DNA of 64,000 bases, taken from positions 719,806-783,805 of the forward strand of contig OZ251486.1 of assembly GCA_965242705.1 (NCBI GenBank), read 5' to 3'. Within the stretch, counting starts at the first letter, position 1, and the number at the start of each line of letters is the position of its first letter. This document shows positions 1-46,634 of the stretch, piece by piece. The stretch is from Bryobacterales bacterium (GTDB taxonomy: Bacteria; Acidobacteriota; Terriglobia; Bryobacterales; UBA6623). The notes below the pieces were generated by a model. That model searched no databases, had not been told where the DNA came from, and worked only from the letters and a program-made list of their open reading frames with translations. Both the position numbers and the translations under genes were made by a program.

Positions 1-8
1 CCGGCTGC

Positions 9-1136
9 ATGTCGCGCCACCGGGAGCCCGAATCGGGCGCGGACGCCCCCGCCGCGCTCGACGTCCACGCGAAACGCGGCGCGCGCGCTGGCCGCGTCGA
101 GTTGGCCGACGGCAAAGACCCTTGGGAGTACTGTTACGAGCACGGCTTTGCCGACCCGCTGCCGGTCGTGCCGCCGACTGCTGAGCGGGTCGAGCGAATG
201 ATCGCGGCGGCCGGCCTGCCGCCCGAAGATATCGTTGCCCGCGTGCCGCCGAATTTCGGCGCGGCGACGGTTGAGAAAATCGCCGCCAACGCGGTCATGG
301 CCGGCTGCCGGCCGGAGATGATGCGCGTACTCATTCCGCTGACGCGCGCCCTGTGCGACGAGCGGCTCGATATCCACGGCGTGCAGGGAACGACGCATTT
401 CGCCGCGCCGCTGGTCGTCGTCAACGGCCCCGTGCGCGGGCGCCTCGGCTTCGCCTCGGGCAGCAACGTCTTCTCGAACACGGCGCGCGCGAACTCGACG
501 CTCGGACGGGCAGCGCAGCTTGCGCTGCGCAATCTGGGCGGGGCCGTTCCCGGCGAAATCGACATGTCCACTCTGGGCAACCCTGGCAAATTCAGCTACG
601 TCATCGCCGAAAACGAGGAAGCCAGCCCGTGGGCGCCACTGTGCGCCGACTTCGGCATCGACCCCGCGCGAAGCGCGCTGACGCTGTATTGCTGCGAGCC
701 GCCGCGGGGTATCAGCGAGCATGCCGCGCGCGCCGCCGCCGTGCTGCTGCGCGCGTTCTGCCCCGTGCTGGCCAATCTCTGGAGCCGCCGCGTCTGCCGC
801 GCGCCGGAGGCGCTGGTGGTCATCGGCCCCGAGCACGCCGCGACGCTCAAACGCAGCGGCTTCACCAAAAACGACGTCATCGATTATCTCTACGAGAACA
901 CCGGCATCCCGCTGCACGAATACGACGGCGACGGCGGCGAAGGCGTAAAGGCGGCAGAGCGCTACGAGGAGTGCCTTATCCGCGGCGTGCGCTGCTATCG
1001 GAAATTCAACGGCCCGGAATCGATTCGCATCATGGTTGCGGGGGGCCCGGCGGGGAAATTTTCGGCCGTGCTCGGTTCCTGGCAGACGGGCCGGCGCGGC
1101 AGTCAGATGGTCTGTTATCCGATCGACGACGAATAG
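9..1136 (+). CDS. conserved hypothetical protein (375 aa, 11 Cys), immediately upstream of the selenoprotein candidate
   Basis: Long ORF with non-repetitive, host-like composition. It stops at TAG 1134-1136, and a GGAAGG lies a few nt before the next ATG at 1152. I recognise no named family motif. The frame is open to the window edge, so the true start may lie upstream. Confidence 0.6.
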   Translation: MSRHREPESGADAPAALDVHAKRGARAGRVELADGKDPWEYCYEHGFADPLPVVPPTAERVERMIAAAGLPPEDIVARVPPNFGAATVEKIAANAVMAGCRPEMMRVLIPLTRALCDERLDIHGVQGTTHFAAPLVVVNGPVRGRLGFASGSNVFSNTARANSTLGRAAQLALRNLGGAVPGEIDMSTLGNPGKFSYVIAENEEASPWAPLCADFGIDPARSALTLYCCEPPRGISEHAARAAAVLLRAFCPVLANLWSRRVCRAPEALVVIGPEHAATLKRSGFTKNDVIDYLYENTGIPLHEYDGDGGEGVKAAERYEECLIRGVRCYRKFNGPESIRIMVAGGPAGKFSAVLGSWQTGRRGSQMVCYPIDDE

Positions 1137-1151
1137 GGAAGGAACAAACGC

Positions 1152-1688
1152 ATGGCAACGGTCCTGGTCAATCCACTCGACGAGCAGGCGCGCCCCGAGG
1201 CGAGTCCCGCGCCGCGTCTCGACACGCTGCAGGGCAAACGCCTGGCGCTGCTCGACATCAGCAAGCCAGGCGGCTCGATATTTCTCGATCGCCTGGAGGC
1301 GCTGCTGACCGAACGGTACGGGGCAGCGAGCATCCTGCGAATCGCCAAGCCCACGTTCGCCAAGCCCGCGCCCAGCGAAGTGCTGGCGAAAATCCGCGAG
1401 GCGCAGGTCCATGCGGCGGTCGAAGCGCTGGCCGATTGAGGCTCCTGCACGACGTGCAGTTTGCACGATTCGATACGGCTTGAAGCCATGGGCATCCCGA
1501 CAGCGCCGGTCGCTACCGACGTTTTCCGCACCGCCGCGCGGGCGCAGGCCGCCGGGTTGGGCCGGCCCGATTACGAAGCGGTGTACGTCGCTCATCCGAT
1601 TCAGGATCGAACCGCCGATGAAATCCGGCAGCGGGCGGACGGCGCCGCGTCGGAAATTGTGCGCCGTCTGACCGACGGTTTTGTGTAG
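1152..1688 (+). CDS. selenoprotein candidate (178 aa with UGA=Sec at 1437-1439), motif U-G-S-C-T-T-C, 'UGSC family'-like
   Basis: ORFs 1152..1439 and 1461..1688 share a frame and the only stop between them is TGA 1437-1439. Read-through gives ...VEALAD-U-GSCTTCSLHDSIRLEAMGIPTAP.... The downstream piece has no ATG or RBS of its own. A hairpin lies at SECIS distance. Confidence 0.7.
1450..1472 (+). promoter_or_regulatory. candidate bacterial SECIS hairpin
   Basis: The upper stem CGTGCA (1453-1458) pairs with TGCACG (1462-1467), with loop GTT at 1459-1461 about 20 nt after the UGA. A lower stem CGA/TCG follows a 2-nt bulge. An alternative overlapping hairpin is CTGCAC-GAC-GTGCAG at 1445-1459. 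Judged by eye; not folded. Confidence 0.45.
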
Positions 1689-1731
1689 AATTCAGAGATG
1701 ACGCCTGCCCGCGCAGGAGTCGGAGCTCGGC

Positions 1732-2919
1732 ATGGAAACACCTACGGAAAAACTCCTTCAGCCATTCAAAATCCTGGTCGTGGACGACGAGCCGGACGTC
1801 GAACGTCTCGTGCGCCAACGCATGCGCCGGGACATACGTTCCGGGCGCTACAGCTTCGTTTTCGCCGGCAACGGCATCGAAGCGCTCGACGTGCTGGCGC
1901 AAAGCCAGGACATCGACATGGTGCTCTCGGATATCAACATGCCGCAGATGGACGGCCTCACCTTGCTGGGGCAGATCCCGAGCGTCAACCCCAACATCCG
2001 CGCCGTGATCGTTTCGGCCTATGGGGACATGAAGAACATCCGCACGGCCATGAACCGCGGCGCGTTCGATTTCATCACCAAGCCGATCGACTTCGACGAT
2101 ATGCGCATCACCATCGAGCGGACGCTGCGCAATCTGGCCATCTGGCGCGAAGCTCTTTCGTCGCGCGACAAGCTCGTCGCGCTGGAGAGAGAGCTGGGCA
2201 TCGCCCGGCAGATGCAGTTGTCGATCCTGCCCACGCGATTCCCTGTCGCCGCGGGCTACGAGGTGTTTGCCAACATGCAGCCCGCCCGCGCCGTCGGGGG
2301 CGATTTCTACGACGTGCTGCAACTCGAGGCAGGCCGCATCGGCTTGGCTATCGCCGACGTTTCCGACAAGGGGGTGCCGGCCGCCCTTTTCATGATGTCC
2401 AGCCGTACGCTGCTGCGCGGCGCCGCCATCGGCTGCAGAGACCCCGGAGACGTGTTGAAGGAAGTCAACAACATGCTCGTCTCGAACAACGAGTCGATGA
2501 TGTTCGTAACCGTTTTCTACGCGATTTTCGATCCCGTGAACGGAACCCTCACGTATGCCAACGGCGGCCATAACGAACCGCTTCTCGTCCATGCCGACGG
2601 CAGTTCGGAGCTGCTCCCCCCGACCGGAGGGGTCGCCGCGGGCGTGATGTCCGATTTCCAGTACAATTCCGGGAGCGTGAGGCTGTCCGCCGGCGATGCC
2701 GTCGTGCTCTACACCGACGGAGTGACCGAGGCCATGAACCCCAACGATGAGGAGTACGGCGTCGAACAGCTGCTCCGATTGTTCGCGGAGGGGCCTCGCC
2801 CGAGCGCGAAACAGACGAACGAAGCCGTCTTCCAAGCGGTGAGCGAGTTCGCGGAAGGCACCGCCCAGTCCGACGACATTACCTGCCTGACTCTCCATTA
2901 CAAAGGGGCCGCGGCGTGA
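1732..2919 (+). CDS. response regulator receiver domain fused to a PP2C/SpoIIE serine phosphatase (RsbU-like)
   Basis: N-terminus KILVVDDEPDV...DMVLSDINMPQMDG is a REC domain. The C-terminus has GGDFYDV and IADVSDKGVPAALFMM, which are SpoIIE/PP2C motifs. Confidence 0.9.
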   Translation: METPTEKLLQPFKILVVDDEPDVERLVRQRMRRDIRSGRYSFVFAGNGIEALDVLAQSQDIDMVLSDINMPQMDGLTLLGQIPSVNPNIRAVIVSAYGDMKNIRTAMNRGAFDFITKPIDFDDMRITIERTLRNLAIWREALSSRDKLVALERELGIARQMQLSILPTRFPVAAGYEVFANMQPARAVGGDFYDVLQLEAGRIGLAIADVSDKGVPAALFMMSSRTLLRGAAIGCRDPGDVLKEVNNMLVSNNESMMFVTVFYAIFDPVNGTLTYANGGHNEPLLVHADGSSELLPPTGGVAAGVMSDFQYNSGSVRLSAGDAVVLYTDGVTEAMNPNDEEYGVEQLLRLFAEGPRPSAKQTNEAVFQAVSEFAEGTAQSDDITCLTLHYKGAAA

Positions 2920-3350
2920 GCGAGAAACTGGTTCTGCGCGTCGAACCGCAATTGGCCGCCCTGGAGAAGATCAATGCCGCCGCCGAGGAGTTCGGCCGCG
3001 CGGCGAACTGGTCTGACGATCTTGTCTTCCAGGTCTGTCTGGTTCTTGAAGAGGTCGCGGTCAACATCGTCAAACACGGATACGGCGATGCGCAATCGTC
3101 CGGCAGCCGCGAGGCGATCGAAATCTCCCTGTCGTCGCAACCGGGCAATCTCAAGATCGAGATTACCGACGGCGGCCGAAGCTTCAATCCATTGACGGAA
3201 AGCCCCGAACCCGATCTGGACGCGAAACTCGAAGACAGGCCCATCGGCGGACTGGGCGTATATCTGGTGCGCACCATGATGGACACGATGGACTATCGGC
3301 GCAGCGACGGCAAAAACCATTTGACCTTGACCAAGCGGACGGGCGGATGA
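2916..3350 (+). CDS. anti-sigma regulatory factor type serine kinase (RsbW/SpoIIAB-like, HATPase_c_2)
   Basis: EEVAVNIVKHGYG (N-box-like) and IGGLGVYLVRTMMD (G-box-like). The GTG start overlaps the upstream TGA (GTGA at 2916-2919). Confidence 0.8.
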   Translation: MSEKLVLRVEPQLAALEKINAAAEEFGRAANWSDDLVFQVCLVLEEVAVNIVKHGYGDAQSSGSREAIEISLSSQPGNLKIEITDGGRSFNPLTESPEPDLDAKLEDRPIGGLGVYLVRTMMDTMDYRRSDGKNHLTLTKRTGG

Positions 3351-4522
3351 TGCGCGCGCCGAGACTGTTTCCCATCCTGCTGTTCGCGGCGATCTGCGCG
3401 GCTCTGTCCGCCCGCGCGGCTGACGTGGGGGTTTTCGACGACCGCGTTGTTTTCGGCCAATCCGCGGCGTTCAGCGGTCCCGCCGCGGACCTGGGCAGCG
3501 ACCTCCGACTCGGCATCGAGGCGGCGTTTCAGGAGGCCAACAGGCGCGGCGGCGTCCACGGGCGCAAGATCGAGTTGATTTCTCTCGACGACGCCTACGA
3601 GCCGGAGCTGGCTATTGCCAACACGCGCAAATTGATCGAAGAAGATCGGGTGTTCGCTCTGATTGGCGCCGTCGGCACGCCGACGTCGCGCTCAGCCACG
3701 CCGCTCACCGAGAGCGCGGGCGTGCCCTACATCGCGCCTTTCACCGGCGCGGCCTTTTTGCGCGATGCCCTGCGCTGGAACGTAATCAACCTGCGCGCCT
3801 CGTACGACCAGGAGACCGAAGAAATCGTCGCCCGCCTGACCGGCGACTTGGGCATCGACCGCATCGCCATCCTGTACCAGGACGATTCCTTCGGCCGGGC
3901 AGGCTTGCAAGGCGTCCGCAAGGCGCTCGACCGGCGCAAGATGGAGATGGTGGCCATGGGCTCGTATGTGCGCAACACGACGGCCGTAAAATCGGCGCTG
4001 CTCGATCTGCGCGCCGGGAACCCCCAGGCCGTTGTGCTGATCGGCGCCTACAAGCCGGTCGCGGCGCTGATTTCGTGGGCGCGAACCCTCGATTTCAATC
4101 CTGTTTTCGTAACGATTTCCTTCGTCGGCAGCTACGCGCTGGCCAAAGAGTTGGGCGCCGACGGATACGGCGTTTTCGTGACTCAGGTAGTGCCTTTCCC
4201 AACCGCCGACCTGCCCGTCATCTCCACTTACCGCCGGGCGCTGGCATCCCGCTCGCGCAAATCTTCTCCGGGTTTCGTCTCTCTGGAAGGCTATCTGGCC
4301 GGACGCTTGGCGGTCGTCGGCTTGCAGCGCAGCGGTCGAGAACTGACTCGAGACAGTTTCATCGCCAGTCTGCGCAGCGATGAAACGATCAGCATCAACG
4401 GATTCAGGCTGCGCTACGGCGAAGCGGACAACCAAGGGTCGAATTCCGTCTTTCTCACGATGATCGACGGCAGCGGAAACTATAAACCGATCCGCACCCT
4501 GACGGACGGAATAAAACCGTGA
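3347..4522 (+). CDS. periplasmic substrate-binding protein, type 1 (LivK/branched-chain amino acid binding-like)
   Basis: Signal peptide MMRAPRLFPILLFAAICAALSARA. The core VVFGQSAAFSGPAADLG...LIGAVGTPT is typical of the Peripla_BP_6 family. ATGA overlap with the upstream gene. Confidence 0.8.
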   Translation: MMRAPRLFPILLFAAICAALSARAADVGVFDDRVVFGQSAAFSGPAADLGSDLRLGIEAAFQEANRRGGVHGRKIELISLDDAYEPELAIANTRKLIEEDRVFALIGAVGTPTSRSATPLTESAGVPYIAPFTGAAFLRDALRWNVINLRASYDQETEEIVARLTGDLGIDRIAILYQDDSFGRAGLQGVRKALDRRKMEMVAMGSYVRNTTAVKSALLDLRAGNPQAVVLIGAYKPVAALISWARTLDFNPVFVTISFVGSYALAKELGADGYGVFVTQVVPFPTADLPVISTYRRALASRSRKSSPGFVSLEGYLAGRLAVVGLQRSGRELTRDSFIASLRSDETISINGFRLRYGEADNQGSNSVFLTMIDGSGNYKPIRTLTDGIKP

Positions 4523-6783
4523 TCGATCTATTCCATCGCTTGGCGCAGGCCGGCAAGCGCATCGCCGGACAACATCTGTTGAAGCGCCTGCTGCAAGCGG
4601 GCCGGAGCATCGCCGAGCACCCCCTGCTGAAACGTCTGCTGCAGGCGCGTCAACGCATCGCCGGGCAGCTCTATCTCGGGCTGGGCGGGGCGGTCGCGGT
4701 CACCGTGGGCGCCAGTCTGGTCGCCTGGATATCGTTCAACCGCATGGGCGACGCCCAGAGCGAAGTGAACGAGGGCAGCGTTCCGGAAATGGCCGCCGCG
4801 TTCGGAATCACGCAGCAAATCGGCGCGCTGGTGGCCGCGGCTCCGCGCCTGACGACCGCCGCCACACCGCAAGAACTCGCCGAGGTCACCGCAGAAATCG
4901 GAGCGGAGCGGAGCGCCTTCGAAGACCGCCTCGATGAGCTGGTGCATGGCGGCGAAGACCAGGAATCGCAGCGTTTCACGCGCATCATCGCCGAAAGCCG
5001 GGCGCTGATTCTGAACATCGACTCCATTGAAGACTCGGTCACGGAACGCTTCAATCTGGCCGCCCGCAGCGAAACCTTGCGCGCCGAGCTGGGGCAGTTG
5101 CAACTCGCCCTGGAAGAGATCATGGTCCCTTCCATCGACAATCAGTTCTTCTATGCCATGACCGGCTACCGCGACCTCGGCGAGCAGCCTGCTCCGCGCG
5201 GACTGCATTTCCGCGAAGACCAAGTCAACCGCTACCGCCACATGACCGAGTTGCACGCCGACGCCACCATTGCCACGCAACTCATGACCAGCGCCTTCAA
5301 CCTTTCGGACCTGCTCCTGCTCGAGCCATTGCGGGAACGTTTCGAAGCGGCCGTAGGCAGGATTGAGCGGCGCCTTGCGGCTCTCGACGGGACCCGGGCG
5401 TCAAAGGAAACCGCCCCGAAATTCGACCGTCTGATCGAACTGTGCCTCGGCGATGAGGGAGGGTTCGCTCTGCGCACGCAGGAACTCGAGCTTGCCGAGC
5501 AGCAACGCAATCTGCTTGCGCGCAATCGGGAACTCGCGCTCTATCTCGTCCTCGGGGTCGAAAGTCTCGTCAGCGCCGCGCGCGGGAACGCGGATGCGGC
5601 AACGCAGGCGTCCGCCGAAGCGATCCAGACCGGACGGGTCCTCCTGCTCGTGCTGAACGGGGTCAGCATCGTCGGCGCAGTGCTGATCGCCTGGTTGTTC
5701 ATCGGCCGAGTCCTGCTGCGCCGTCTCGACCTGCTCTCGGGCTGGATGCGCCGCATGGCCGGGGGCGACCTGCATGCCAAGGTCGAGATCGGAGGGCGCG
5801 ACGAAGTCGCGGACATGGCCGCGGCACTCGAAATCTTTCGCCGTCAGGCGCTGGAGGCCCAACGCCTGAACCTTGTCGAAAAACTGGCCGAAGAACTGCG
5901 CGGCAAGAACGACGAGCTCGAGTCCGTGCTGACCGATCTACGCCGCGCCCAGGATCAGATCGTCACGCAGGAAAAACTGGCGGCGCTCGGCGAGCTCACC
6001 GCCGGCGTGGCCCACGAAATCAAGAACCCGCTGAACTTCGTGAAAAACTTCTCCGAGGTATCCGGCGAGCTGATCGAAGAATTGCAGGAGACGCTGCAGC
6101 AAGGAGAAGAGCAGTTGACCGACGATCAGCGCGAGGAAGTTCGCGAGATCTGCACGGACCTGACCGAAAACCTCAACTGCATCCGCGAACACGGCGACCG
6201 CGCCAACCGCATCGTCCACGACATGCTCATGATGGGCCGCGACTCGGGCAACCGCATGGAAGTCGATATCAACACCCTGATCAAAGACAATGCGCTGCTC
6301 GCCTTCCACAGCGCGCGGGCGACCGATTCGAATTTCATCCTCGATATTCAGGAAGACTTCGACCCGCAGGTGGGCATGGTCGAAGTCGTTCCGCAGGAAA
6401 TCGGCCGCGTCGTCCTCAACATGGTCAGCAACTCCTGCCACGCCACCGACGAGAAGCGACAGGCCGTGGACGGTAATGAGCCTTATTCGCCCGTGCTGCG
6501 GCTGACAACCAAGCGCACCGAAGAAGGCCGCGTCGAAATCAGCGTCCGCGACAATGGAAACGGCATTCCCGCCGAAGCCATCGACAAGATATTCAACCCG
6601 TTCTTCACGACGAAACCGACGGATCGGGGCACAGGGCTCGGGCTTTCGATGTCCAACGACATCGTGCGCAAGCACGGCGGGAACATCCGCGTCAAGTCCG
6701 AGCCCGGCAGCTTCACCGAAATGACGATCGATTTGCCCGCGAAGGCTCCCGATGCGGAAGCTCCCGCGGCGGAGCAGGCTTAA
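4519..6783 (+). CDS. sensor histidine kinase with two TM segments, a large periplasmic region and a HAMP domain
   Basis: H-box AHEIKNPLNF. ATPase motifs DNGNGIP and GTGLGLS. A HAMP-like segment (RRMAGGDLHAKVEIGGRDEVADMAAALE) follows the second hydrophobic stretch. The GTG start overlaps the upstream TGA. Confidence 0.9.
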   Translation: MIDLFHRLAQAGKRIAGQHLLKRLLQAGRSIAEHPLLKRLLQARQRIAGQLYLGLGGAVAVTVGASLVAWISFNRMGDAQSEVNEGSVPEMAAAFGITQQIGALVAAAPRLTTAATPQELAEVTAEIGAERSAFEDRLDELVHGGEDQESQRFTRIIAESRALILNIDSIEDSVTERFNLAARSETLRAELGQLQLALEEIMVPSIDNQFFYAMTGYRDLGEQPAPRGLHFREDQVNRYRHMTELHADATIATQLMTSAFNLSDLLLLEPLRERFEAAVGRIERRLAALDGTRASKETAPKFDRLIELCLGDEGGFALRTQELELAEQQRNLLARNRELALYLVLGVESLVSAARGNADAATQASAEAIQTGRVLLLVLNGVSIVGAVLIAWLFIGRVLLRRLDLLSGWMRRMAGGDLHAKVEIGGRDEVADMAAALEIFRRQALEAQRLNLVEKLAEELRGKNDELESVLTDLRRAQDQIVTQEKLAALGELTAGVAHEIKNPLNFVKNFSEVSGELIEELQETLQQGEEQLTDDQREEVREICTDLTENLNCIREHGDRANRIVHDMLMMGRDSGNRMEVDINTLIKDNALLAFHSARATDSNFILDIQEDFDPQVGMVEVVPQEIGRVVLNMVSNSCHATDEKRQAVDGNEPYSPVLRLTTKRTEEGRVEISVRDNGNGIPAEAIDKIFNPFFTTKPTDRGTGLGLSMSNDIVRKHGGNIRVKSEPGSFTEMTIDLPAKAPDAEAPAAEQA
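4528..4671 (+). repeat. three imperfect tandem 48-bp (16-aa) repeats encoding the kinase N-terminus
   Basis: The units are LFHRLAQAGKRIAGQH / LLKRLLQAGRSIAEHP / LLKRLLQARQRIAGQL, directly before the first TM segment. Confidence 0.8.
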
Positions 6784-44221: not shown

Positions 44222-45163
44222 CTACGCCGCGAAGCGGCGCTTGCGGGCTTCGTCGAGGGCTACGGCGGCGATGATGATGGCGCCGATGATCGCCTGCTGC
44301 CAGTAGGGGTTGACGCCGAGCAGGTCGCTGCCGTTCGCCAACAGCCCCATGATGAATGCGCCGATCAGCGTGCCGATGACCGTGCCCTCGCCTCCGGTCA
44401 GGCTGCCTCCGCCGATGACGACGGCGGCGATGACCTGAAGCTCGTAGGCGACGCCGGCCGTGGGCTGTCCGGTCATCAGCCGCGAAGTCTCGATCATGGC
44501 CGCCAGGCCGGTCAACATGCCGCTGATGGCATAGATTGCGATTTTGTAACGGCCGACCGGAATGCCGGCGTAAACCGCGGCTTCCTCGTTGCTGCCAATG
44601 GCGTAGGTATAGCGCCCGAGCTTGGTGGAATGCAGCGCCGCATGCACGATTGCGGCGCAGACGACGAGCACGATCAAGACGAACGGCGCCGGGCCGACGG
44701 TCCCTTCGCCGAGAAAGCTGTGCTCCTTGGGCAGCCCGACCACGGGCAGGCCGTCGGTAACGACGAGCGTCAGGCCGCGCACGATGCCCATCGCGCCCAG
44801 CGTCACGATGAACGGCGGGATTTTCAGGCCGGTAATCATGAAGCCGTTGAAGAACCCCCAGGCAAAGCCGGAAAACACTCCGGCGGCGATGCCCAGCAGC
44901 ACCGATCCGCTGCCGACCATGGTCATCGTGCCGATGACGCCGGCGAAGGCCAGAATCGAACCGACCGACAAGTCGATTCCGCCGGAAACGATAACCAGAG
45001 TCATGCCCAGCGCCATGATGTTGATCACCGCCGTTTGCCGCACGACGCTCGACAGGTTGGTCGCCGTCAGGAAATACGGCGAGGCGATCGACAGGATGAG
45101 GAAAAGCGCAATGAGGCTGAAAAAGGGCAGCAGCCGCTGCAGCATTCCGCTTTGGAATTTCAT
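44222..45163 (-). CDS. sugar ABC transporter permease (RbsC/AraH-like)
   Basis: Multi-TM protein with GGIDLSVGS and the typical RbsC-type layout. Start at MKFQSGML. Confidence 0.85.
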   Translation of the reverse strand: MKFQSGMLQRLLPFFSLIALFLILSIASPYFLTATNLSSVVRQTAVINIMALGMTLVIVSGGIDLSVGSILAFAGVIGTMTMVGSGSVLLGIAAGVFSGFAWGFFNGFMITGLKIPPFIVTLGAMGIVRGLTLVVTDGLPVVGLPKEHSFLGEGTVGPAPFVLIVLVVCAAIVHAALHSTKLGRYTYAIGSNEEAAVYAGIPVGRYKIAIYAISGMLTGLAAMIETSRLMTGQPTAGVAYELQVIAAVVIGGGSLTGGEGTVIGTLIGAFIMGLLANGSDLLGVNPYWQQAIIGAIIIAAVALDEARKRRFAA

Positions 45164-45179
45164 TTCGTATTCCTTGACC

Positions 45180-46634
45180 TTACGCGCCCACCGCCGCATG
45201 ATGCATGATTTCCTGCTGCGTCGTCTCGCGGGGAAGCTCGGCAACGACGGCGCCGTTGCGCATGACCAGGATGCGGTCGGCGACCTGCAGCAACTCGGGC
45301 AGTTCCGAGCTGACCATCAGCAGCGCCTTGCCTTCGGCGGCCATTTCCTCCATCAAGCGAAAGACCTCCGCTTTGGCGCCGACGTCGATGCCGCGGGTGG
45401 GTTCGTCGAAAAGCACTACGCCGGTATCGCGGAACAGCCATTTGGCGATGACGACCTTCTGCTGGTTGCCGCCGCTGAGTTGACGCGCCCGCTGCCGGAT
45501 CGATCCGGCGCGTATGCGCAGACGCGCGCGGTAGCTCTCGGCGACCTTTTCCTCCGCTGCGGATTGAACCATCCCGGCGGAGCAAACCGCATCGAGATTG
45601 GCCATGGTGACGTTGGCGCGTATCGGCAGATCGAGAGCCAACCCGGTTTGCTGCCGGTCTTCGGTAACCAGAGCGACGCCGGCGGCCACCGCGCCGCGCG
45701 GCGAATCGATCGTCCGTTTCTCTCCATCGACCTCGATCGAACCCTCGTGCGCCGGCGTGACGCCGAAAAGCGTCCGGCACAACTCGGTGCGGCCGGCGCC
45801 CATCAACCCGGCGACGCCGACGATCTCGCCGGCGCGGATCTCGAACTGCGCGCCGGGCAGATCGACCTTGAGCTTGACCTTGCCCGGCGCAAGCCTGCCG
45901 CGCTCGTAAATCGCCGAGACTTCGCGCCCCACCATGTGATGCACAATCTCTTGTGTCGAGATCTCCGCGCGCGGGCAGGAATGCACGGTTTCGCCGTCGC
46001 GCAGGATGGTGACGCGATCGGCGATTTCGTCCAGCTCGACCAGGCGGTGCGTGATGTAGATGATGCCCTTGCCGCGGGCGCGCAATTGGCGGACGATCTC
46101 GAACACCTCGACAGTCTCCGCCTCGGAAAGCGAAGACGTAGGCTCGTCGAAGATCAACAGCGAGGCGTCGCTGCGCAGCGCGCGGACAATCTCGACGAGC
46201 TGCTTTTGCGCCGGACTCAGCATTTCCACGCGGCGGCCGGCTTCGAGAGGGAAGCGGTGCTCGTCGATCAACCGCTCGGTTTCCTCTTCCATCGCCCGGC
46301 GGTCGGCCAGCGGCCCGCGCAGGATTTCGTGTCCGAGAAACACGTTTTCGGCAACGGTCAGGTGCGGCGCCAGCAGCGATTCCTGATGCACCATGGCAAT
46401 GCCGGCGCGGTGGGCCTCGGCGGGTCTGGCGAAATCGACCGCCTCGCCCTGAAAACGCATCTCTCCCCCGTCGCGGCGATGCATGCCGGCGACGATTTTC
46501 ATCAACGTCGATTTTCCCGCTCCGTTTTCACCGACCAGCGCGTGAACCTGCCCCGGCTCGACGCGCATGTCCCCGCGCACAAGCGCATGAACGCCGCCGA
46601 ACGATTTGCGAATGCCGCTTGATTCGAGAAGCAC
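45180..46634 (-). CDS. sugar ABC transporter ATP-binding protein (duplicated ATPase, RbsA-like)
   Basis: GENGAGKST Walker A, LSPAQKQLVEIVRAL and LSGGNQQKVVIAKWL signatures, two NBDs. Confidence 0.88.
   Translation of the reverse strand: MLLESSGIRKSFGGVHALVRGDMRVEPGQVHALVGENGAGKSTLMKIVAGMHRRDGGEMRFQGEAVDFARPAEAHRAGIAMVHQESLLAPHLTVAENVFLGHEILRGPLADRRAMEEETERLIDEHRFPLEAGRRVEMLSPAQKQLVEIVRALRSDASLLIFDEPTSSLSEAETVEVFEIVRQLRARGKGIIYITHRLVELDEIADRVTILRDGETVHSCPRAEISTQEIVHHMVGREVSAIYERGRLAPGKVKLKVDLPGAQFEIRAGEIVGVAGLMGAGRTELCRTLFGVTPAHEGSIEVDGEKRTIDSPRGAVAAGVALVTEDRQQTGLALDLPIRANVTMANLDAVCSAGMVQSAAEEKVAESYRARLRIRAGSIRQRARQLSGGNQQKVVIAKWLFRDTGVVLFDEPTRGIDVGAKAEVFRLMEEMAAEGKALLMVSSELPELLQVADRILVMRNGAVVAELPRETTQQEIMHHAAVGA

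Follow-up and report, generated by a model that had tools for sequence, protein, structure and literature searches.

At one end of a 64,000-nucleotide stretch of DNA from a Bryobacterales bacterium (contig OZ251486.1, positions 719,806 to 783,805), which as a whole we call the window, a gene for a selenoprotein of the UGSC family follows directly on a gene for a large protein, its partner. We think it fairly probable that the two genes encode a single modular oxidoreductase that depends on selenocysteine (Sec), is recycled by thioredoxin and has its substrate site in the partner. We observed the gene anatomy, the decoding of Sec, the selenocysteine insertion sequence (SECIS), a linkage that holds from whichever gene it is viewed, fusions of the two proteins, and a correlation between Sec motif and domain architecture. 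Few bacterial selenoprotein families are as abundant as UGSC in environmental metagenomes. Our data show that it does not stand alone: it makes up one half of a module that is near-obligate, often fused and variously wired to thioredoxin- or thioredoxin-reductase-like domains; with this module, an orphan family becomes a defined, testable system.

A two-gene unit at the edge of the window

The unit comprises the following features.

1-1136, plus strand: 3′ part of the partner gene of ~523 codons, with 375 codons and a stop, and codons for Pro-Gly-Cys at 1-8 (from homologues and contig L161)
9-1136, plus strand: open reading frame (ORF), the 3′ part of the partner gene as seen in the window
1137-1151, plus strand: intergenic spacer of 15 nt with a Shine-Dalgarno-like GGAAGG at 1137-1142 (read from the sequence)
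1152-1688, plus strand: UGSC-family selenoprotein gene of 178 codons including Sec, with the motif D-U-G-S-C-T-T-C (from PF24696, NF041046 and the translation)
1437-1439, plus strand: in-frame TGA read as Sec and followed by GSC (conserved at the homologous position)
1451-1469, plus strand: SECIS hairpin with a GUU apical loop (from folding and covariation)
1663-1689, plus strand: terminator-like hairpin GCCGTC-TGACC-GACGGT (1663-1679) with the T-rich tail TTTTGTGT (a weak consensus match)

The part of the upstream gene that lies in the window encodes the end of a PGC-x-S-R-H linker motif and the entire partner domain. A preliminary description of this DNA had called the two genes a tight unit, and we reached the same view: beyond the 15-nt gap, the GGAAGG sequence sits 9 nt before the UGSC ATG at 1152, and no terminator-like hairpin occurs between the two genes (1137-1151). 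The terminator-like site at 1663-1689 overlaps the last UGSC codons and leaves 43 nt up to the ATG that follows. The two-gene unit may end at this site; terminator-like sites in the region are no more numerous than in shuffled sequences.

UGSC and its partner are linked across phyla

Linkage was read in two samples of loci. The partner-centred sample, with one genome per species, held 540 confirmed loci, of which 80 were read; they come mostly from Acidobacteriota, and also from Gemmatimonadota, Chloroflexota, Binatia-like bacteria, Burkholderiales, Methylomirabilota and Rokubacteria. The UGSC-centred sample was drawn from metagenomes, with 594 loci confirmed and 80 read. UGSC adjoins the partner on the same strand in 74 of the 77 assessable partner-centred loci, across several phyla; three further loci end at a contig end and were unassessable, and three of those read truly lack an adjacent UGSC gene. 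Viewed from the other side, the partner adjoins UGSC in 62 of the 80 metagenome loci, and about 14 of the remaining 18 are cut within ~150 nt of the UGSC gene. Across the loci, conservation extends to no further neighbour.

The three partner genes without an adjacent UGSC gene (L015, L018 and L032) are all fused to a thioredoxin domain, and UGSC may lie elsewhere in these genomes. At L015 the next gene encodes a 234-aa protein with a signal resembling that of twin-arginine translocation (Tat); at L032 a convergent 425-aa ORF follows, by eye like a sugar-phosphate nucleotidyltransferase.

Gene order depends on lineage, with the partner first in the thioredoxin-fused type and UGSC first in the Burkholderiales type. 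Single polypeptides joining UGSC to the partner are found at two loci (L059 and L075) and in a Methylomirabilota gene; two more such fusions (P0160 and P0174) are Cys forms, and P0126 is fused in the opposite order, partner before UGSC. Two UGSC genes lie on the same strand in five metagenome loci. At four of these (L121, L137, L146 and L151) each copy adjoins a partner domain, which suggests that the tandem pairs are paralogues with different specificities; at the fifth, L091, one of the two copies has no partner domain beside it. The short contig L139 carries convergent UGSC-like genes at 628-1140 (plus strand) and 1326-1448 (minus strand) with no partner domain visible, the sole such arrangement seen.

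Pairing, variable order, fusions and duplications together form a pattern that is classic for two components of a single machine. The preliminary description had proposed that the upstream protein is a dedicated functional partner of UGSC and had staked this on synteny in other genomes; the adjacency seen from both genes, together with fusions in both orders, constitutes strong synteny and bears the proposal out.

The in-frame TGA is decoded as selenocysteine

Translated with Cys in place of Sec, the second frame of the unit matches PF24696 at E 3.4e-49 (167.7 bits, against a cut-off of 25 bits), and the window UGSC protein scores 149 bits with NF041046, above its cut-off of 125 bits. The in-frame TGA at 1437-1439, followed by GSC, supplies the U-G-S-C motif of the family. 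The gene at 1152-1688 genuinely belongs to the UGSC family of selenoproteins. At the homologous position, TGA is present in all 72 adjacent UGSC genes of the genome loci, and in the metagenome sample, whose loci were selected by a pattern that does not cover this codon, TGA was counted 79 times and TGC once. Such almost exclusive use of Sec suggests that selenium chemistry is essential here, as in the Grd and Prd enzymes. A search of PDB sequences with the UGSC profile gave no match.

A bacterial SECIS hairpin is found downstream of the UGA. It begins 14 nt past the UGA, and its stem has 6 bp, from C17-G31 to A22-U26 when a segment of 48 nt is numbered from the UGA onward; the apical loop, G-U-N across the family, is GUU in the window and lies 20-22 nt past the UGA. 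In an alignment of 45 sequences, 92% of the stem cells are paired, and the pair formed by columns 21 and 27 switches from GC to CG in 18 of the 45. The covariation score was reached by none of 500 shuffles and by no slid register. In the UGSCTTC-S-L type of protein the stem pairs TGC (Cys) with TTG (Leu), and in the UGSCTSW-S-V type it pairs TGG (Trp) with GTC (Val). The stem thereby couples two codons, so that protein motif and RNA structure co-evolve.

The opposite reading is that the TGA is a true stop, separating ORFs at 1152-1439 and 1461-1688, and that the genes merely happen to be packed into one operon. Gene callers do split the gene at the TGA, and no tRNA-Sec or sel genes were seen among those checked in the window, a result that is uninformative for 64 kb. 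Set against this, protein conservation carries on past the TGA in over 150 loci, all 72 genes of one sample and 79 of 80 in the other retain the codon, the SECIS shows compensatory changes, and read-through fusions containing Cys exist; linkage, for its part, persists across phyla, with reversed gene order and with fusions. These comparative data effectively refute the reading, and we give it next to no weight.

The upstream gene encodes a thioredoxin-like domain fused to the partner domain

The upstream protein had been described as 375 aa long, a length that, like the ATG at 9, proved to be an artefact of the window edge. No in-frame stop precedes this ATG (positions 3-8 read GGC TGC), and homologues read through the methionine. 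When 5.8 billion proteins were searched with the 375-aa query, 4,712 matches were returned; the best 120 were inspected for length and domains, and nearly all of them are 520-540 aa long with N-terminal Redoxin/AhpC-TSA domains (PF08534/PF00578), the query aligning with their C-terminal part only. In the closest match, P0001 (96% identical), the sequence reads ...PPAKPGC-M-SRHREPESGA..., and the Met at position 9 is internal; other homologues have Val or Phe in its place. Contig L161, which carries P0001, is 96.8% identical in DNA to the window. Window position 1 corresponds to L161 position 720, and the gene starts there at 284; by this alignment the real gene has ~523 codons, with 436 nt lying upstream of the window edge. 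What the window holds is thus the C-terminal 375 residues of a ~523-aa protein.

The N-terminal domain (~145 codons) lies outside the window and, as seen in P0001 on L161, is a thioredoxin domain of TlpA/ResA-like type that carries a CPxC motif. All tests of this domain were made on P0001 and not on the window sequence. They revealed a thioredoxin fold with a CxxC active site, here CPAC. An AlphaFold2 model of P0001 (predicted local distance difference test, pLDDT, 87) superposes through its N-terminal domain on the DsbE, ResA and StoA structures with template modelling (TM) scores of 0.7-0.8 over target length; Foldseek with the full-length model returned thioredoxin-domain matches only, headed by 3gl3, 4nmu and ResA at E ~4e-7, and a profile search of the domain found ResA at 3e-14. 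The preliminary description could place no motif in a known family, which holds for the partner domain and not for the full protein, with its TlpA/ResA-type CxxC thioredoxin domain.

TlpA, ResA and DsbE (CcmG) reductases are membrane-anchored or periplasmic proteins that act in cytochrome c maturation or sporulation. The N-terminal domain has in common with them the CPxC motif, the TM-scores and the profile match given above. Unlike them, it shows neither signal peptide nor anchor when its N-terminus is inspected, and a domain of ~375 aa that looks cytoplasmic is fused to it.

Source databases label the homologues 'peroxiredoxin' or 'TlpA disulfide reductase' from the small N-terminal domain alone. 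The first label, given by the Joint Genome Institute (JGI), was rejected: the motif E-T-D-C-P-x-C is a CxxC and not the P-x-x-x-T/S-x-x-C of peroxiredoxins, and the best structure and sequence matches are thiol-disulfide reductases, with peroxiredoxin and BCP entries far lower (E 3e-4 or worse). Public gene calls also cut UGSC at the TGA into products of 95 and 66 aa (L161, 1871-2407; window, 1152-1688). The splitting of UGSC and the naming of the partner from its N-terminal domain are a systematic annotation error that needs correction.

The same labels would suit an enzyme that detoxifies peroxides or disulfides in the manner of peroxiredoxins, with UGSC as its selenium peroxidatic centre. 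The domain does match AhpC-TSA/Redoxin, and many bacterial selenoproteins are peroxiredoxin- or thioredoxin-like antioxidants (PMC2398784, PMC13188914). We nonetheless hold this to be improbable: the CPxC domain is closest to the reductases DsbE, ResA and StoA, UGSC scores only 0.3% against thioredoxin-fold profiles, and many members are entirely without a thioredoxin domain. A conserved, unrelated domain of ~350 aa and tandem paralogous pairs suggest substrate specificity rather than generic peroxide removal.

The partner domain has conserved polar motifs

The partner family is large, with 4,773 clusters at 50% identity (E <= 1e-3), or 3,032 at E <= 1e-10. Its domain was compared with Pfam, NCBIfam and PDB sequences (as a single sequence and as profiles) and by Foldseek. 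No Pfam or NCBIfam match was found for the window protein, nor any Pfam match at E <= 5 for 26 diverse members. PDB sequences yielded no relative except for one local match of 40 residues, in which the GG-x-G-K-x-S loop of the partner aligns with the phosphate-binding loop of HisF (E 2e-5 for an engineered HisF, ~1 for the wild type). A domain-only model was predicted with a pLDDT of 84.7 and a predicted TM-score (pTM) of 0.85; Foldseek against the PDB gave no significant fold match for it (best E 5e-3, TM ~0.2). Class I fumarate hydratase, the 'Toblerone' cyclic amide hydrolases and DUF1185 were considered as folds and dropped as evidence because of TM-scores of ~0.2 and root-mean-square deviations of 13-18 Å. 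The structural comparison proposed in the preliminary description thus matched the partner to no well-characterised enzyme family.

The conserved motifs of the partner are mostly polar or glycine-rich: DGLPvvPPT, AANAVMAGC, QxTTH, NGP, RANxTxGRA, AENExxSPW, PEH and GGxxGKxS. The 375 residues contain 11 cysteines, LYCCEPP among them, as had been counted before. The emphasis placed on the cysteine motifs did not survive comparison: the CC pair and the other cysteines singled out there are lineage-specific, most cysteines are not conserved, Cys100 (in AANAVMAGC) being the only nearly invariant one of the family, and the spacing reported as C-x7-C (EECLIRGVRCY) is in fact C-x6-C (CLIRGVRC). Self-processing at MAG|C, of the N-terminal nucleophile (Ntn) or pyruvoyl type, was considered and put aside; in the model this Cys falls between two helices, and Ala replaces it in one member. 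In proteins of ~715 aa, P0130 among them, the partner domain occurs twice in a row.

The nearly invariant Cys could be read differently, with UGSC serving as a dedicated selenium redox switch or activator, a private thioredoxin, for Cys100 of a partner whose own chemistry is non-redox (hydrolysis, isomerisation or a lyase reaction). The conserved Glu, His, Asn, Arg and Thr that accompany this Cys are typical of a general enzyme active site, the weak fold likenesses are to hydratases and cyclic-amide hydrolases rather than to redox enzymes, and linkage and fusions are equally compatible with such a role. We consider it unlikely. Those fold matches lack significance, at least one fused member can do without Cys100, nearly exclusive Sec (79:1) would be unusual for a purely regulatory thiol switch, and the stacking of thioredoxin-reductase, thioredoxin and UGSC modules resembles an electron-supply chain for turnover.

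A moderate profile likeness of UGSC to the Sec module of selenoprotein B

The recurrent extra NCBIfam matches of UGSC proteins are weak and of GrdB type only (GrdF/GrdH/GrdB, E 0.006-0.1). For the window UGSC protein, PF07355 gives no match at E <= 1, and the NCBIfam Grd scores are far below cut-offs. Aligned by hhalign with a PrdB-like profile built from 15 sequences found in the Global Ocean Sampling (GOS) supplement (PMC2398784), the UGSC profile reached a probability of 69.5% (E 4e-5, 100 columns), with Sec placed on Sec; the controls (reversed PrdB, the thioredoxin domain and the partner domain) reached 0.1-0.3%, the thioredoxin domain being negative at 0.3%. Taken with the weak GrdB-type matches, this profile alignment suggests that in UGSC we probably see the Sec module of selenoprotein B in minimal form. 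The earlier term 'GrdB-like' for the Sec carrier accordingly finds moderate support, at a level that does not reach family cut-offs.

Redox wiring and a model of turnover

Sec motif and architecture go together: UGSCTTC occurs with a thioredoxin-fused partner in 50 of 53 cases, UGSCTSW in 0 of 95. All thioredoxin-fused proteins down to ~35% identity keep a Cys in the linker motif (K/R)PGC-x-S-(R/K)-x-x-E/D-P, which separates the thioredoxin and partner domains and whose Pro-Gly-Cys is encoded by the 8 bases with which the window opens (window 1-20; L161 700-740). In P0219 (695 aa, from the representative library) the C-terminus of the partner is joined to a TrxB-like Pyr_redox_2 domain, which carries a CAVC motif.

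In the modular oxidoreductase that we favour, the UGSC protein would be the redox centre, with its Sec-x-x-Cys(-x-x-Cys) loop placed where a β-strand ends, built like the Sec loop of GrdB and PrdB. The large upstream domain would be a fixed partner, most likely forming a substrate-binding or catalytic pocket, and its conserved polar residues, E201, E203, H276, R167 and N94 of the window ORF among them, together with the phosphate/carboxylate-loop-like GG-x-G-K-x-S, could accommodate a small anionic substrate. After each turnover the CPxC thioredoxin domain would re-reduce the selenenyl-sulfide, probably via the third Cys of UGSCTTC and the linker Cys (PGC-x-S-R/K), with NAD(P)H as the ultimate electron source through thioredoxin reductase.

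From the data at hand we infer that the proteins form a complex, in which direction electrons flow, that the partner binds substrate and what kind of substrate this may be. The partner has no relatives whose function or fold is known and no likeness to GrdE or PrdA, so its role as substrate binder is proposed by analogy. A small anionic substrate is hinted at weakly by the polar and glycine-rich motifs and by Bug/TctC-type binding proteins, which lie near the pair in 20 of 59 UGSCTSW-type loci; these proteins are a weak hint only, because such genes are extremely common in Burkholderiales.

Several points weigh against this model. The case for every member of the family is computational. Three thioredoxin-partner genes stand without an adjacent UGSC gene, as noted above, and systems without a thioredoxin fusion have no thioredoxin or thioredoxin reductase gene nearby. 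The correlation of Sec motif with thioredoxin fusion is partly phylogenetic, and it is tied to the SECIS stem, in which the Cys or Trp codon pairs with a Leu or Val codon. The hhalign probability of 69.5% is below the usual confidence level; the partner domain scores 0.1% against the PrdB region, shows no GrdE/PrdA similarity (PF09338, 26 partner domains, E <= 5) and is without a detectable relative whose function or fold is known. Cys100 is replaced by Ala in one fused member, L074. Finally, 10 window ORFs selected by size included no selD, selA or selB, a negative that carries no information for a piece of 64 kb.

Downstream genes

Past the unit, the following genes were assigned by eye from their translations.

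1732-2919: receiver and SpoIIE-type phosphatase
2916-3350: small anti-sigma/HATPase-like protein
3347-4522: periplasmic binding protein
4519-6783: histidine kinase

Start and stop codons overlap throughout this cluster (1732-6783). As described earlier, the gene at 1732 opens a signalling cluster; synteny of the cluster with the pair is limited to the two closest relatives, L001 and L161, and the other loci are without it. Far from the unit, the ORF at 44622-46619 (plus strand, 666 aa), with a high GC content at third codon positions (GC3), has no Pfam match at E <= 1e-5.

Comparison with known selenoprotein systems

Earlier work lists the UGSC family as plentiful in aquatic metagenomes, its function being unknown (Zhang and Gladyshev 2007/2008; PMC1976440, PMC2398784), and reviews from 2007 to 2026 list its function as unknown (PMC1976440, PMC2398784, PMC13188914). 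A fusion of UGSC with a domain called 'Unknown_1' is mentioned in the 2008 GOS paper of Zhang and Gladyshev (PMC2398784); 'Unknown_1' is probably the partner domain of our pair. The pair had been called undescribed. UGSC itself is curated (PF24696, NF041046) and the fusion was noted in 2008, which limits that claim; the pairing, on the other hand, we did not find described, and in the literature we found no description of near-obligate pairing, of thioredoxin or thioredoxin-reductase fusions, of the motif-architecture correlation or of a profile link to GrdB/PrdB. Where the literature presents UGSC as a stand-alone protein with a 'likely Trx-like fold', we see half of a near-obligate pair or fusion, with a profile that gives 0.3% to thioredoxin and 69.5% to GrdB/PrdB. 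The window protein belongs to the subtype with a third Cys (UGSCTTC), which tracks the thioredoxin-fused partner.

A bolder and more tentative version of the oxidoreductase model would make UGSC and its partner a counterpart, widespread and mostly aerobic, of the glycine/proline-reductase-type selenoenzymes of clostridia, with a selenol that attacks a small carboxylate or phosphate. The partner would bind the substrate, the UGSC selenol would reduce or cleave it, and a fused or free thioredoxin system would recycle the selenenyl-sulfide. Though we think it rather doubtful, it would, if true, give a function to an abundant orphan selenoprotein family of soil and freshwater metagenomes.

Grd and Prd enzymes pair a small Sec module with a separate, larger, substrate-specific protein, draw reducing power from the thioredoxin system and use Sec almost exclusively. 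UGSC is likewise a small Sec module with a separate larger partner and nearly exclusive Sec, and in our model it too would be recharged by a thioredoxin system. GrdB/PrdB and UGSC also appear alike in their Sec-x-x-Cys loop after a β-strand, after which come a helix and a 'G-I-(P/S)-T-V' strand, the layout on the PrdB side being taken from the GOS PrdB-like sequences. UGSC is shorter, at ~178 aa against ~240 aa for PrdB and ~435 aa for GrdB, and unlike Grd and Prd its system has neither an evident pyruvoyl-forming site nor a GrdA-like second selenoprotein. The hosts differ as well: for UGSC they are mostly aerobic bacteria of soil and freshwater (Acidobacteriota, Burkholderiales), and for Grd and Prd amino-acid-fermenting anaerobes. 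The pair in the window is an ordinary member among hundreds of an uncharacterised variant of Sec-dependent reductases, one that by analogy resembles Grd and Prd in outline and is not a member of either.

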